Of a DNA stretch of 64,000 nt, positions 11,626-41,395 are shown piece after piece (position 1 is the stretch's first letter; each line of letters opens with the position of its first letter). The notes under the pieces were generated by a model, which did no database searches, was not told the origin of the DNA, and saw only the letters and a list, made by a program, of their open reading frames with translations. Made by a program: the position numbers and the translations under genes. Source of the DNA: Escherichia coli (lineage in GTDB: Bacteria; Pseudomonadota; Gammaproteobacteria; Enterobacterales; Enterobacteriaceae); assembly GCF_003334405.1 (NCBI RefSeq), contig NZ_QOWM01000001.1, one strand, 5' to 3'.

Positions 11626-13629
11626 TCATCCTTGTTGCTGAAGCATGGGGAATAATTGTTCGCACAGCAAAACGCAGTTATTCATTGCTTCTACCCGTGC
11701 CTCGCTTTCTGTATTACGAAATTGTCCCAATACATGTGCCAGCCGATAAAAACCCACCGCGGTGAGGTCATTCGCCAGCAACTCTGCCTGACCAATAGCA
11801 CTCTGTTCCTGATAGCGCCAGCCGTTATGGAGCAGTTGAATAAGTAATGCCTGGCAGCGCATCAGCAACTGATGAGCAGTAGACGGCACAGGCAGAACGC
11901 TGACAGAAGGTAGTGATGCCACCACAGGCGCAGTTTCTGCGTCCAGCGCCCAGGCACGAGTCTTTGTCATCATTACCTGTGGTTCCAGTGTCAATTGCCC
12001 ATCAACAAAACTGACAAAGCCAGAAACCAGACACACGGGGTCGTCTGTTTGTTGCAAAAGCGCCGCCATGCGTTCAATGGCATAAGGCGCGCTGGCTGAG
12101 GCTGGCAGTGATAACGTCAGCAGATTATCTTCACCTTCGCCGCTGATTACCTGCGCATCCAGCGTCTGGCGGCTGCTATCCCAACCGAGCGAAATACACT
12201 CAGCGACCGGCAGAATAAATAAGTTATCGACCTGATTAAGAGGCCGTATGCAGGAGGGGGGACGCTGGCGTAAATATTCCCGCAAAGCCACAATGCCCGA
12301 CTGGCGTAACGGCGCGCTCAACATTTGCCAGGCATCAGGCGACAGCGGCACAACGCTGCTTAAGCGGTTGCGGGTAGCTAACAGCAGCTCGCCATCGGCA
12401 CTGCGTTTTGCTGCTTGTGAAACAATTTGCCCACCCGCCAGTGCGCCAGCCTGAAAACTAAACAGCCGACGCGTAGCTGCCGGTGAGTTTTCCTGTTCAC
12501 TTCGCGGCCAACTGCGCGAAAGGTGCAAAATACTGCCGGTGTCGGGATCGGTAAACCAGATGCGTAAACCATAATGCTCAATATCCTGCCAGCAACGCAT
12601 ACCTAAAGACACCAGCCGCAGATGATCAAGCTTTGCTTCTCCGGCAATGCCAGAGCCAACGACCGTGCGCCACGGCACAGGAGGAACTTCACCAACACTG
12701 TCGCGCCGCGCCATCTCTTGTGCGCAATTTAATCGACTGTTTAATGCCGCAAGCTGACGTAAGCATTCTCCGGCATGATAGTGGCTGGCGCGGGCGTGGA
12801 AGGCATCAACGCTGGCGCGCAGTTGCCGTAGCGATTCACTCACCCATCGCCAGTTGCAGCGTTCCGCTGCTTGCTGCGCGCGGCTGAAAGCGGCCTCGTA
12901 GTGAATAAGCGGCTGGCTGATGCCGCCCAGCCATAATGCCTGGCTTAGTTGCTGAACATATTGACGACACGTTTTGCCTTCTTCGCTGGCAAACAGATCG
13001 TCAGATGATGTGACGTGTTCGCTGCGCATCTGCCAGATTAAATGAGTCAATTCCGCTTGCTGCGCTTTTGCCTGGACAAAGGCCTGTACTGCCAGTACGA
13101 CATGTTCGCAAAGTGTGCCTTCAATACAATCACAACGGGCGAAACGAATGCTGCTACGGGAATAAAAACGCACATCGCTCATCGGTAAGCGGGCAGAGGG
13201 AATTTCGCCCGGCGTACAGAACAACTCAATGGTGATGCCTTTAGCGACCAGCGCCTGCGCGCGTTTGCGGATGGCATCGGGCAGGGTAGCCAGTTCTTCC
13301 AGCCAGATTGCCGGATCCCACTCTTCTTCTTTTTCTGTGGGCTGGACGGTGGCACAAAGTCGTTGATAACTTAACACCAGCATCACGCGATGACGGCACA
13401 TGCCGCTGGCCCCGCAGCTGCACTGAGCCTCTTTCAGTGCCTGGCCGTTCGCCAGCTGGGTACGGACACCGTCACTGAAGGTGGCGATTAAAGCGCCGTT
13501 CTCATGGCTGATCTCCGGGACGTTGCCATTTTCCAGTTCCTTAAGACTGCGCTTAACAAAACCGGCATTGCTTAACGCTGTCAGGGCCTGCGGTGTCAGT
13601 TCTAATAATTCCGGACGTAGTGAATTCAT
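11626..13629 (-). CDS. yehQ: SWIM zinc-finger protein with two CxCx5CxH motifs
   Basis: Start ATG 13629..13627 overlaps yehP stop (ATGA); translation contains CSCGASGMCRH and CDCIEGTLCEH SWIM-type motifs; 667 aa. Confidence 0.82.
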   Translation of the reverse strand: MNSLRPELLELTPQALTALSNAGFVKRSLKELENGNVPEISHENGALIATFSDGVRTQLANGQALKEAQCSCGASGMCRHRVMLVLSYQRLCATVQPTEKEEEWDPAIWLEELATLPDAIRKRAQALVAKGITIELFCTPGEIPSARLPMSDVRFYSRSSIRFARCDCIEGTLCEHVVLAVQAFVQAKAQQAELTHLIWQMRSEHVTSSDDLFASEEGKTCRQYVQQLSQALWLGGISQPLIHYEAAFSRAQQAAERCNWRWVSESLRQLRASVDAFHARASHYHAGECLRQLAALNSRLNCAQEMARRDSVGEVPPVPWRTVVGSGIAGEAKLDHLRLVSLGMRCWQDIEHYGLRIWFTDPDTGSILHLSRSWPRSEQENSPAATRRLFSFQAGALAGGQIVSQAAKRSADGELLLATRNRLSSVVPLSPDAWQMLSAPLRQSGIVALREYLRQRPPSCIRPLNQVDNLFILPVAECISLGWDSSRQTLDAQVISGEGEDNLLTLSLPASASAPYAIERMAALLQQTDDPVCLVSGFVSFVDGQLTLEPQVMMTKTRAWALDAETAPVVASLPSVSVLPVPSTAHQLLMRCQALLIQLLHNGWRYQEQSAIGQAELLANDLTAVGFYRLAHVLGQFRNTESEARVEAMNNCVLLCEQLFPMLQQQG

Positions 13630-17044: not shown

Positions 17045-18133
17045 TCACGGCAGGCGGTGGCGGGCTTGATAATAAGCCTGCCAGTGAGCTTCTTTATGTG
17101 TGGCGACACGCTGTTCGAAGTAACGGCGCAGACGAGCGCGATCTTCTTCGTTATCTTTGACGATGGTTCCGGCAATACAGTCCACCAGGTCGGCAGGCTC
17201 CCCCGCGCGATTCGCTAAAAACCAGGCGCGGACGCCCACGGCGTGGGCCACGTTCACGGCTTCAGCCGTGGACATAATCGCTGTTAGTGTATCCATTGAC
17301 GTTTTCTTTTCGCCGTTGGCACGCAGATCGCGGAAGGTGCGGACCAGTAACTCCAGTACCGCGTCAGGCACTTTATGCGGAATACCGCTATGGGCCAGCA
17401 AACGCGCCGAAGCACTGGCGACAAGCTCCAGCTCCTGGGCGAAATCCATAATCGGAAAGACAGTTTCAAAATCGAAGCGACGCTTTAGCGCAGCACTCAT
17501 TTCATTGACGCCGCGATCGCGGGTATTGGCAGTGGCAATAATATTAAAGCCTTCTCGCGCATAGAGCTGACTGGCTTCACCAGTGAGTTCCGGCACCGTC
17601 ATCACCCTGTCAGAAAGCATGCCTAACAGACAGTCTTGCACTTCCAGCGGTGTACGCGTTATCTCTTCAAAACGGACGATTTTGCCGTCGCGCATTCCCT
17701 GGTAAAGCGGGGCAGGGACCAGCGCTTCCGTTGATGGACCATGATTGATAAGCAGGGCGTAGTTCCAGCCGTACTTGATTTGATCTTCGGTAGTAGATGC
17801 GCCGCCCTGGACGGTTAACCCGGCATCGCCGCTAATAGCGGTTGCCAGTAATTCAGACAGGAGAGATTTTGCGGTGCCAGGTTCCCCCACCAACATCAAA
17901 CCGCGTCCGGTGGCAAGAGTGACTAACATACGTTCGACAGCGGAGGGACTAATCACCACTTTACGGCTAATATTTTGCGCGCTATCGCCAAGGATAAAAG
18001 CACGGGCCGCAGGCAAACTTAACTGCCAACCGGGCGGGCAAGGTGCGTTATCATTTTGTTTTAATTTTGCCAGTTCATCGGCGTATAACACAGCAGCAGG
18101 CGGACGCTGCAGATGATTATTCTGCGGTGACAT
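17045..18133 (-). CDS. yehL: MoxR-type AAA+ ATPase (AAA_5 family)
   Basis: ATG at 18133 (MSPQNNHLQRPPAAVLYADELAKL...) gives 362 aa; Walker A GEPGTAKS; Walker B-like IVRFEEI; stop 10 nt before yehM start. Confidence 0.88.
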   Translation of the reverse strand: MSPQNNHLQRPPAAVLYADELAKLKQNDNAPCPPGWQLSLPAARAFILGDSAQNISRKVVISPSAVERMLVTLATGRGLMLVGEPGTAKSLLSELLATAISGDAGLTVQGGASTTEDQIKYGWNYALLINHGPSTEALVPAPLYQGMRDGKIVRFEEITRTPLEVQDCLLGMLSDRVMTVPELTGEASQLYAREGFNIIATANTRDRGVNEMSAALKRRFDFETVFPIMDFAQELELVASASARLLAHSGIPHKVPDAVLELLVRTFRDLRANGEKKTSMDTLTAIMSTAEAVNVAHAVGVRAWFLANRAGEPADLVDCIAGTIVKDNEEDRARLRRYFEQRVATHKEAHWQAYYQARHRLP

Positions 18134-18242
18134 ATATTCATCCCTGAAATGTATTAATGAAATAAACGATATTTTACGCGCAATAAATGTTTGGCGCATT
18201 AGTTGTTTGAGCGAAAAATATCTGGAAAGCAGATCACAGTAA

Positions 18243-18327
18243 ATAAAAAAACCTGCTGGTGAGGCAGGTTCTTTTATTTACTATTTTCAGGCCTAACACC
18301 ACAGCCTGTGCAACATCGTGTTCCAAC
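18243..18327 (-). ncRNA. predicted OrzO/OrzP-type antitoxin sRNA (copy 1)
   Basis: Minus-strand -10 TATAAT (18339..18334) 17 nt from TTGCAA -35 (18357..18362); predicted TSS near 18327; intrinsic terminator ACCTGC/GCAGGT stem (18251-18269) followed by U-run on minus strand; 5' 20 nt complementary (19/20) to toxin leader 18474-18493. Ends are predictions. Confidence 0.5.
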
Positions 18328-18356
18328 GAACGAATTATAACCATGGCTGGACCCCG

Positions 18357-18384
18357 TTGCAATTAAGATAATGAGATTTATAAT
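18357..18384 (+). promoter_or_regulatory. predicted sigma70 promoter of toxin mRNA (copy 1): TTGCAA-N16-TATAAT
   Basis: -35 TTGCAA 18357-18362, -10 TATAAT 18379-18384; predicted TSS about 18391, giving a leader of about 175 nt to the ATG at 18566. Confidence 0.55.
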
Positions 18385-18565
18385 CCAGACCGTTGGGACG
18401 TTGCGCCGGATCGAACCTATTTCAAGTCCTGGCTACCGGACGGGTGGTGCTGCAGGTGGTGCCCTGATCCGGAGTGCAACATCGTGGTCCAACATACGTA
18501 AACCAGTATCGACAGGCAGTGTAAGGGTAAGGTGCTGGTGTTGCGCTCCTTAATAAGGAGAGCGG

Positions 18566-18655
18566 ATGGACACGCTGACACAAAAGTTAACCGTGCTCAT
18601 TGCTGTACTGGAGCTATTAGTAGCTCTGTTACAGTTGATTGATTTGTTGAAGTAA
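18566..18655 (+). CDS. zorO: ZorO/ZorP-family type I toxin, 29-aa hydrophobic peptide (copy 1)
   Basis: ATG 18566 with AAGGAG SD 6 nt upstream; translation MDTLTQKLTVLIAVLELLVALLQLIDLLK then TAA; matches remembered ZorO/ZorP family of E. coli O157:H7. Assignment of O versus P to the two copies is arbitrary. Confidence 0.78.
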   Translation: MDTLTQKLTVLIAVLELLVALLQLIDLLK

Positions 18656-18676
18656 CGGGCAAATTGAAACGCATCT

Positions 18677-18705
18677 AAGGGGGAAAACCGCTTCCCCCTT
18701 TAATA
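18677..18705 (+). terminator. intrinsic terminator after toxin ORF copy 1
   Basis: AGGGGGA ... TCCCCCT stem-loop followed by TTTAATAAAA. Confidence 0.45.
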
Positions 18706-18852
18706 AAATGATTACTGTTTTTATTAATTCATCATATAACTCATGTTTATTTATAAGTTCATCGATTTTATATTCAACGCACCATTTGACCGGGATGTGA
18801 ATATTTATGGTGGGCTATTGGCAAAAAATATCTGGAAAGTAGATCGCAGAAA

Positions 18853-18935
18853 ATAAAAAAACCTGCTGGTGAGGCAGGTTCTTTTATTTACTACAGTGAC
18901 GCTAACTTGCTGATTGTGCAACATTTCGTACCAAC
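18853..18935 (-). ncRNA. predicted OrzO/OrzP-type antitoxin sRNA (copy 2)
   Basis: Minus-strand -10 (18947..18942) 17 nt from TTGCAA (18965..18970); terminator stem 18861-18879 with U-run on minus strand; 5' region 18916-18935 matches leader 19082-19101 at 18/20. Confidence 0.5.
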
Positions 18936-18964
18936 GAATAAATTATAACCATATCCACACTCCA

Positions 18965-18992
18965 TTGCAATTCAGTGAATGAGATTTATAAT
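18965..18992 (+). promoter_or_regulatory. predicted sigma70 promoter of toxin mRNA (copy 2): TTGCAA-N16-TATAAT
   Basis: -35 18965-18970, -10 18987-18992. Confidence 0.55.
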
Positions 18993-19173
18993 CCTGCCCG
19001 TTGGGAGGTTGTGCCGGATCGGACCAATTTTAAGTCCTGGCTGCTGGACGGGTGGTGCCGCAGGCGGTGCCCTGATCCGGAGAGCAACGTTTCGTACCAA
19101 CATACGTAAACCAGTATCGACAGGCAGTGTAAGGGTAAGGTGCTGGTGTTGCGCTCCTTAATAAGGAGAGCGG

Positions 19174-19263
19174 ATGGACACGCTGACACAAAAGTTAATC
19201 GTGCTCATTGCCGTACTGGAGTTATTAGTGGCTCTGTTACGGTTGATTGATTTGTTGAAGTAA
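19174..19263 (+). CDS. zorP: ZorO/ZorP-family type I toxin, 29-aa peptide (copy 2)
   Basis: ATG 19174 with AAGGAG SD; translation MDTLTQKLIVLIAVLELLVALLRLIDLLK then TAA; differs from copy 1 at residues 9 and 23. O versus P naming is arbitrary. Confidence 0.78.
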   Translation: MDTLTQKLIVLIAVLELLVALLRLIDLLK

Positions 19264-19284
19264 CGGGCAAATTGAAACGCATCT

Positions 19285-19313
19285 AAGGGGGAATACCGTT
19301 TCCCCCTTTAATA
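19285..19313 (+). terminator. intrinsic terminator after toxin ORF copy 2
   Basis: AAGGGGGAA ... TTCCCCCTT stem-loop followed by TAATAAA. Confidence 0.45.
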
Positions 19314-19316
19314 AAG

Positions 19317-19637
19317 CTATTTTTCTATTTGTTGGATGAATATATTCTGTAGTTCACGATTAAAAATTGCTATTACAGTTTCAGGTGATTCACCTCGTAA
19401 TTTCCGCTCATCAATACACTCATCTCTTATATAAATCAACGCATCATTTATTAGCGGGTCAGCATCTTCTCGATCACGTTGATGAAATGTTGGATGTAGC
19501 CGGAATCGCTCCAGTCGATAGACGGAACCTGTAAATAATTCAGAGCATTTATGGATCTCAAGTCTGAAGGAAAACGGATCTTCAGGTACAGGGACCTCAT
19601 AATCGTAAATAGCAACCAGCTCTTTTTGCACGATCAT
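19317..19637 (-). CDS. yehK: small uncharacterised protein YehK
   Basis: 106-codon ORF (MIVQKELVAIYDYEVPVPEDPF...) directly downstream of yehI; no recognisable motif. Confidence 0.8.
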   Translation of the reverse strand: MIVQKELVAIYDYEVPVPEDPFSFRLEIHKCSELFTGSVYRLERFRLHPTFHQRDREDADPLINDALIYIRDECIDERKLRGESPETVIAIFNRELQNIFIQQIEK

Positions 19638-41261: not shown

Positions 41262-41395
41262 CAACCAAACGACTCGGGGTGCCCTTCTGCGTGAAGGCTG
41301 AGAAATACCCGTATCACCTGATCTGGATAATGCCAGCGTAGGGAAGTCACGGACCACCAGGTCATTGCTTCTTCACGTTATGGCAGGAGCAAACT
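41262..41395 (+). promoter_or_regulatory. TPP (THI-box) riboswitch in thiM leader
   Basis: Leader contains ACGACTCGGGGTGCCCTTCTGCGTGAAGGCTGAGAAATACCCGTATCACCTGATCTGGATAATGCCAGCGTAGGGAAGTC, the classic thiM TPP aptamer, with SD GGCAGGAGC just before the ATG. Boundaries approximate. Confidence 0.85.

Follow-up and report, generated by a model that had tools for sequence, protein, structure and literature searches.

What lies between yehK and yehL in the Escherichia coli contig NZ_QOWM01000001.1 (RefSeq assembly GCF_003334405.1)? We analysed a stretch of 64,000 nucleotides from this contig (the window), for which an earlier note, made from the letters alone, had proposed two tandem zorO/orzO-type type I toxin-antitoxin modules inserted between the two genes. 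We find that the region is almost certainly the chromosomal zor-orz locus, made up of two tandem type I toxin-antitoxin modules, and nothing contradicts the zor-orz identification. The zor-orz system of E. coli O157:H7 was reportedly described by Fozo et al. in 2010 and by Wen et al. in 2014 and 2017. The locus, its mechanism and its distribution are thus already in print; the instance in the window is real but ordinary, and little is added biologically.

Two tandem modules between yehL and yehK

The flanking genes yehL (17045-18133) and yehK (19317-19637) both lie on the minus strand. We refer to the module adjoining yehL as copy 1 and to the module adjoining yehK as copy 2. The two units repeat each other directly, their starts lying 608-610 bp apart (the period of their open reading frames, ORFs, is ~608 bp), and they are 88% identical over 300 nt and 95% identical over 73 nt. 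The homologous module measures ~490 bp (18211-18700 and 18821-19310), the size estimated before, and an AT-rich spacer of ~120 bp completes the period. The spacer between the modules (18701..18820) has no counterpart in the repeat, and the bin covering it (18600-18999) has a GC content of 0.36.

Each unit carries a plus-strand ORF of 29 codons, at 18566..18655 in copy 1 (MDTLTQKLTVLIAVLELLVALLQLIDLLK) and at 19174..19263 in copy 2 (MDTLTQKLIVLIAVLELLVALLRLIDLLK), exactly as the earlier note had quoted them. The predicted Shine-Dalgarno sequence AAGGAG is present 5 nt before each ATG (18555-18560 and 19163-19168). Scanning with Rfam, both locally and across the whole window, returned the same two matches to the OrzO-P family (RF02083, gathering score 60), both on the minus strand, at 18245-18320 (99.9 bits, E 1.5e-16) and at 18855-18928 (88.8 bits, E 3.2e-14). 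The yehK-yehL interval is collinear with that of E. coli O157:H7 Sakai at ~98-99% identity with the gene order kept, and similarity to the published locus was the test that had been named beforehand. The Sakai peptide adjoining yehL is MDSLTQKLTVLIAVLELLVALLRLIDLLK, which is ZorP (ZORP_ECO57 in UniProt), and the peptide adjoining yehK is MDTLTQKLTVLIAVLELLVALLRLIDLLK, which is ZorO (ZORO_ECO57). Thus, copy 1 is the zorP-orzP module (18245-18700) and copy 2 is the zorO-orzO module (18855-19308). This assignment was confirmed by the V1 discriminator at +9..+11 of the Orz RNAs, which is ACG in copy 1 and GAA in copy 2, matching the triplets published for OrzP and OrzO, respectively (PMC3919570). 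The label of zorO/orzO type therefore suits copy 2, while copy 1 is of the zorP-orzP kind.

The site, order and orientation of the modules are those of zorO-orzO and zorP-orzP in O157:H7 EDL933 and Sakai (z3289, z3290). The promoters, the 174-nt leaders, the hairpin at the ribosome-binding site (RBS), the Orz pairing regions and V1 are identical. The differences fall in the peptides, each of which is 28/29 identical to O157:H7 ZorO, with R23Q in copy 1 and T9I in copy 2. Against ZorP, the copy 1 peptide is 27/29 identical, having T3 (as in ZorO) for S3 besides R23Q. On sequence comparison, R23Q and T9I are rare alleles and the sole local peculiarities; the exact copy 1 ORF occurs in 38/5426 genomes and the exact copy 2 ORF in 54/5426.

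The unit cannot be a product of chance since it recurs, at an identity of at least 93.6%, in 3399 of the 5426 complete E. coli genomes (~63%), with a median of 2 copies and a maximum of 4. In RefSeq, no feature is annotated under nearly all the matches listed, so that the remark that gene-sized ORF tracks miss both toxins applies to public annotation as well. An experimentally validated toxin-antitoxin locus present in ~63% of complete E. coli genomes is thus invisible in almost all RefSeq annotations. E. coli UMNF18 is 100% identical to the window over 18150-19400. In the annotation of that strain, yehP is frameshifted and the DUF4132 gene beyond yehI is a frameshifted pseudogene.

The two antitoxin genes lie on the minus strand. 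With its 5′ end at 18327, orzP spans 18245..18327 (~83 nt, beginning GUUGGAACACGAUGUUGCAC) and ends in an intrinsic terminator hairpin followed by U7; it is identical to the orzP of Sakai and of K-12. With its 5′ end at 18935, orzO spans 18855..18935 (~81 nt, beginning GUUGGUACGAAAUGUUGC), has the same terminator as orzP and lies in a stretch identical to Sakai. We chose these putative 5′ ends to bring V1 to its published position, +9..+11, and the resulting starts, GUUGGAAC-ACG and GUUGGUAC-GAA, agree with the published ones. Sub-threshold Rfam matches on the Orz terminators (Thr and Trp leaders, STnc370) were rejected as terminator look-alikes below the gathering score.

Performing a promoter scan of 18100-19400, we found exactly four sigma-70-like sites, which form two divergent pairs with spacers of 16 nt (zor) and 17 nt (orz). 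The block of copy 1 (18334..18384) holds the orzP −10 TATAAT (18334-18339, minus strand), a palindromic −35 TTGCAA (18357-18362) shared by both strands, and the zorP −10 TATAAT (18379-18384, plus strand); each of its promoters has 10/12 hexamer matches. In copy 2 (18942..18992) these elements are the orzO −10 (18942-18947, minus strand), the shared TTGCAA (18965-18970) and the zorO −10 TATAAT (18987-18992, plus strand). The TTGCAA and TATAAT hexamers are more than 99% conserved (PMC11264685, Table 3). Each unit thus encodes a divergent small RNA with its own promoter and terminator, as had been claimed. The divergent zor and orz promoters use one common −35 and overlap physically, and they could compete for RNA polymerase.

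The orzP gene is co-directional with yehL and lies upstream of it, with ~110 nt separating the end of the orzP terminator from the start codon of yehL. Two strong minus-strand Orz terminators lie between yehK and yehL, and for this reason yehIK and yehLMPQ are probably separate transcription units in strains that carry zor-orz.

Leader structure and antitoxin pairing

By homology with the published zorO map (PMC5397157), we placed the zor transcription starts at 18392 and 19000. This gives 5′ untranslated regions of 174 nt for zorP (18392..18565) and for zorO (19000..19173), close to the ~175 nt proposed before. With these starts, the RBS occupies +164..+169 and the Orz target +83/85..+102, which are the published coordinates. 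In the zorP leader, the region termed EAP, a putative standby region (+73..+102), corresponds to 18464-18493. It contains the predicted OrzP target (18474-18493), and the conserved GGAGTG lies at 18472-18477. In the zorO leader, the EAP region lies at 19072-19101, the OrzO target (+85..+102) at 19084-19101 and the motif GGAGAG at 19080-19085. The zorP mRNA would end in a hairpin with a short U tract, a presumed terminator (18677..18700; AAGGGGGAAAACCGCUUCCCCCUU). The corresponding zorO hairpin (19285..19308) faces the convergent gene yehK, whose stop codon is 8 nt from the hairpin end.

We then computed the pairing of the first 20 nt of each Orz RNA with the leaders. The cognate duplexes reached −29.8 kcal/mol for OrzP and −31.1 kcal/mol for OrzO, compared with −18.7 and −20.2 kcal/mol for the non-cognate combinations. 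Each Orz thus favours its own leader over the other by ~10-12 kcal/mol. Shuffled Orz 5′ ends gave ~−15 ± 2.5 kcal/mol, the best being −24.2. OrzP forms 6 + 13 pairs around one mismatch and OrzO forms 18 consecutive pairs, 17 Watson-Crick and one G-U. Both pairings reach the minimum derived from published experiments, which is 15 pairs in a continuous run or 17 in a discontinuous one.

In the predicted folds of both mRNAs (z score ~−2.6), the RBS is held in a CUCCUU/AAGGAG hairpin with a probability of being unpaired of 0.07, and the 5′ end of the mRNA pairs with the region of EAP and the Orz target. The latter pairing agrees with the published masking of EAP by the full-length leader and its exposure once 28 nt are removed.

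A homologue from another genus bears on these pairings. The cross-species search was an exact-pattern scan of one genome per species, which finds only peptides beginning MD[TS]LTQK[L/F]. It identified a zor-orz homologue in Superficieibacter electus BP-1 (NZ_PQGD01000016.1; L004:8232-8710). Its ORF (8571-8660; MDTLTQKLIVLIAVLELLLALLRLIDLLK) encodes 29 residues, of which 27-28 are identical to the E. coli peptides. The TTGCAA −35, the RBS hairpin, the central leader sequence, the Orz terminator and the zor 3′ hairpin are all kept. The module differs in its site, having PTS-like genes on one side and a deoC-like aldolase gene on the other instead of yehK and yehL, and in its pairing region. There the sequence is unrelated to that of E. 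coli, yet 20 nt are perfectly complementary between antitoxin and leader (−37.5 kcal/mol, compared with −19 ± 2.8 for shuffled sequences and −15 to −20 kcal/mol for pairs with E. coli partners). The 5′ end of the S. electus mRNA has changed in step with the pairing block, so that the helix between the 5′ end and EAP is kept. Consistent with this, the helix persists in a consensus fold of 8 homologous leaders, to which S. electus brings 4 compensatory pairs. Three elements, namely the EAP target and the 5′ ends of Orz and of the mRNA, thus co-vary in nature, which supports the published model of cis and trans pairing.

The S. electus Orz scores 43.7 bits on the Rfam model, below the gathering score, and standard scans would therefore miss it. 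The literature gives the range of the family as E. coli and Shigella only, and our literature search, which was limited, found no prior report of zor-orz in Superficieibacter. With the S. electus homologue, the family is older and wider than stated. The common palindromic −35 arrangement is also seen in S. electus, at L004:8355-8360.

A further ORF of 60 codons in each E. coli leader (18371-18553 and 18979-19161) was considered as a leader peptide and rejected. It begins upstream of the transcription start, and in S. electus it is reduced to 42 codons and diverges where the RNA pairing region changes; it is not conserved.

How would these parts work together? The anatomy, the orthology, the in-silico pairing with its specificity and the purifying selection on the toxin ORF (see below) come from the present analysis. 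What we say of toxicity, RNase III dependence, processing and EAP function goes back to experiments with the orthologue of O157:H7 and is transferred by near-identity. For the EDL933 zorO-orzO pair only, overproduction of ZorO is toxic and OrzO rescues the cells in an RNase III-dependent manner (PMC3919570). Inhibition of translation by OrzO was also shown for the EDL933 orthologue. The processing that removes 28 nt (Δ28) and the EAP region have been described (PMC5397157), as have membrane depolarisation and ATP loss caused by ZorO (PMC9860968).

On this basis, we propose that transcription of zor from a sigma-70 promoter yields an mRNA with a leader of 174 nt, whose RBS would be locked in the small hairpin. 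The first ~25 nt of the leader would pair with +77..+102, leaving the primary transcript poorly translated. Removal of the first 28 nt would free EAP, probably as a ribosome standby site, and promote translation of the 29-residue hydrophobic peptide. In excess, the peptide would insert in the inner membrane, depolarise it and deplete ATP. The divergent promoter with the common palindromic −35 would in turn produce the ~81-83-nt Orz RNA. The first 18-20 nt of this RNA would pair with the 3′ part of EAP, blocking translation and leading to RNase III cleavage, and V1 (ACG in OrzP, GAA in OrzO) would restrict each antitoxin to the mRNA of its cognate toxin.

The arrangement resembles that of tisB-istR1, shoB-ohsC and dinQ-agrB (PMC5397157, PMC3919570). 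In these systems too, the antitoxin RNA is divergent and non-overlapping, ~18-21 nt of pairing takes place far upstream of a structured RBS, and a long leader is processed at its 5′ end to an active form for which a standby-site mechanism has been proposed. The Zor peptides appear unrelated in sequence to the TisB, ShoB and DinQ toxins, though they were set apart from TisB without a direct alignment, and no LexA/SOS control has been reported for zor. Others have noted a partial leader similarity between zor and plasmid dinQ.

The explanation has several weak points. The opening of the leader by Δ28 was weak in silico, the mean unpaired probability at +85..+102 rising from 0.35 to 0.46 in zorO and from 0.34 to 0.41 in zorP; the opening of EAP in the scheme above is accordingly a proposal drawn from the literature rather than from the folds of the window. 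Transcription starts, processing and toxicity are carried over to the window strain by homology. The zor 3′ hairpins went unflagged in the terminator scan, their T runs being short and no long U tract following. The R23Q change of copy 1 falls on a residue where R23L abolishes toxicity and R23E does not. Finally, the literature appears to offer no settled physiological role for the chromosomal locus.

The peptide alleles

Do the two rare alleles still encode toxins? Five charged residues, R23 among them, affect ZorO toxicity (PMC9860968). R23L is non-toxic, but from a pBR322 plasmid it still confers better growth in kanamycin, while R23E stays toxic, as do the neutral substitutions K7Q, E16Q and K29Q (PMC9860968). 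Position 23 may therefore well accept a polar Q. I9 also occurs in the S. electus homologue, which makes T9I probably neutral. Both alleles would presumably behave like the reference peptides.

The alternative is that R23Q, and possibly T9I, attenuate toxicity, and that the module, no longer a strict toxin-antitoxin pair in this lineage, persists because the peptide or the RNAs serve a non-toxic purpose, such as growth in aminoglycosides. Better growth in aminoglycosides has been reported for multicopy zorO-orzO, and R23L keeps a benefit of this kind although it is non-toxic. The rarity of both alleles fits the idea as well. In addition, an orphan orz with no toxin is retained and expressed in ~30% of E. 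coli genomes, which suggests roles of Orz beyond toxin repression. However, the substitutions that stay toxic speak against attenuation by loss of the charge at position 23, and the residue produced by T9I is the one found in S. electus. Moreover, the promoters, the RBS hairpin, the pairing region and V1 are intact in both copies, which fits a continued need for repression. We regard attenuation as unlikely. In a narrower and somewhat more doubtful version, R23Q, which alters a transmembrane arginine, could be a natural separation-of-function allele, through which this pig- and human-associated lineage retains a fully regulated zorP-orzP for a non-toxic membrane function. In either case, R23Q and T9I are ready-made natural variants at or near residues already probed by mutagenesis.

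Returning to the toxin ORFs as such, a comparison with S. electus points to purifying selection. The window zorO differs from the S. electus ORF by 9 synonymous and 1 non-synonymous codon changes, and overall the comparison with S. electus counts 8-9 synonymous and 1-3 non-synonymous changes. A last reading, to which we give next to no credence, would make these ORFs chance frames in a repeated non-coding element of which only the RNAs matter: the peptides have only 29 residues, no NCBIfam model and no RefSeq annotation, but their length and 27-28 of the 29 residues are kept in S. electus with mostly synonymous changes while the leader pairing region there is fully replaced, a strong Shine-Dalgarno sequence at optimal spacing precedes every copy, the 60-codon leader ORF shows no such conservation, and ZorO is toxic and has been observed as a protein in the membrane (PMC9860968).

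Searching NCBIfam with the two peptides gave no family match for either, even at E ≤ 10. In public databases, the window peptides appear only as 'hypothetical protein', apart from one UniRef entry that names the R23Q peptide 'Type I toxin-antitoxin system toxin TisB'. This name looks like a mis-annotation, given the lack of an NCBIfam match and the 28/29 identity of the peptide to ZorO.

Age and range of the locus

Is the locus a recent arrival? The word 'inserted' in the earlier note implies a horizontal islet in the yehK-yehL spacer, for which K-12 would be the empty ancestral site. Three observations favour such an islet. The GC content over 18000-19400 is 0.36-0.47 compared with 0.50-0.57 in the flanking genes, the toxin gene is absent from ~37% of E. 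coli genomes, and the Superficieibacter homologue occupies an unrelated site, so that the module must have moved at least once. Against this, Escherichia sp. MOD1-EC7003, Escherichia sp. E1V33 and E. whittamii also gave matches in the pattern scan, and in all three the module lies between yehK and yehL. Its position is therefore an old one in the genus. In 5240 genomes (96.6%), part of the interval is matched by a longer query that extends over orz and the flanks. No flanking repeats, integrase or insertion sequence element accompany the modules, and low GC is normal for intergenic, promoter-rich DNA.

The K-12 spacer is also far from empty. Comparing MG1655 (L002:8291-8596) with the window (18200-19316), we find that orzP and both promoters survive in K-12, together with a short leader stub of zor that runs directly into yehK-adjacent sequence, while zorP, orzO and zorO are gone. 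The missing part runs from about +32 of the zor leader to just before yehK; the literature gives the stub as 27-29 nt. The junction, …GGACCAATTT|GAATTATTTAGAG…, falls within a short A/T-rich tract similar to the sequence on both sides. The K-12 state thus looks like a deletion, because orzP, the promoters and the leader stub remain joined to yehK-adjacent sequence. The K-12 orzP RNA has been seen by northern blot and named OrzPmg (Shore et al. 2024, PMC11264685), and its transcribed sequence and promoter hexamers are those of copy 1 in the window. The statement that the system is absent from K-12 is therefore right for both toxin genes and wrong for orzP and the leader stub. Taken together, a recent islet is very improbable, and insertion does not describe the position of the locus.

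The distribution that we found agrees with a published survey of genomes, in which 42% had two copies, 25% one copy, ~30% orz only and 3% none. A plasmid-borne origin was rejected. A distant blastn search of PLSDB gave only 8 E. coli records, several of them chromosome-sized 'plasmids', and no other genus.

We also considered the spacer between the modules (18701-18820) as a degenerate 3′ part of yehK, which would have defined the duplication unit. The local DNA alignment scored 28, compared with 18.1 ± 2.6 for shuffled sequences (maximum 31), and a BLASTP comparison between the spacer translation and YehK returned E = 0.87. This idea was dropped because neither alignment is significant.

In E. 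whittamii, two OrzO-P matches exceed the gathering score (L007:12262-12335 and 12871-12946), but a single ORF fits MD[TS]LTQK. The second module there is either orz-only or has a diverged toxin N-terminus. Between the zorO hairpin and yehK, Sakai has an extra segment of 53 bp (TATACTCGTCATACTTCAAGTTGCATGTGCTGCGACTTTAATTATCTAGAG…; L003 23166-23230) that is missing from the window (19309-19320). The window YehK has 106 residues and a different C-terminal end, compared with 105 residues for K-12 YehK.

Elsewhere in the window, the only other Rfam matches above the gathering score are ordinary E. coli features, namely the CyaR/RyeE small RNA (57606-57691, minus strand, 100.7 bits) and a TPP riboswitch (41265-41361, plus strand, 71.2 bits).

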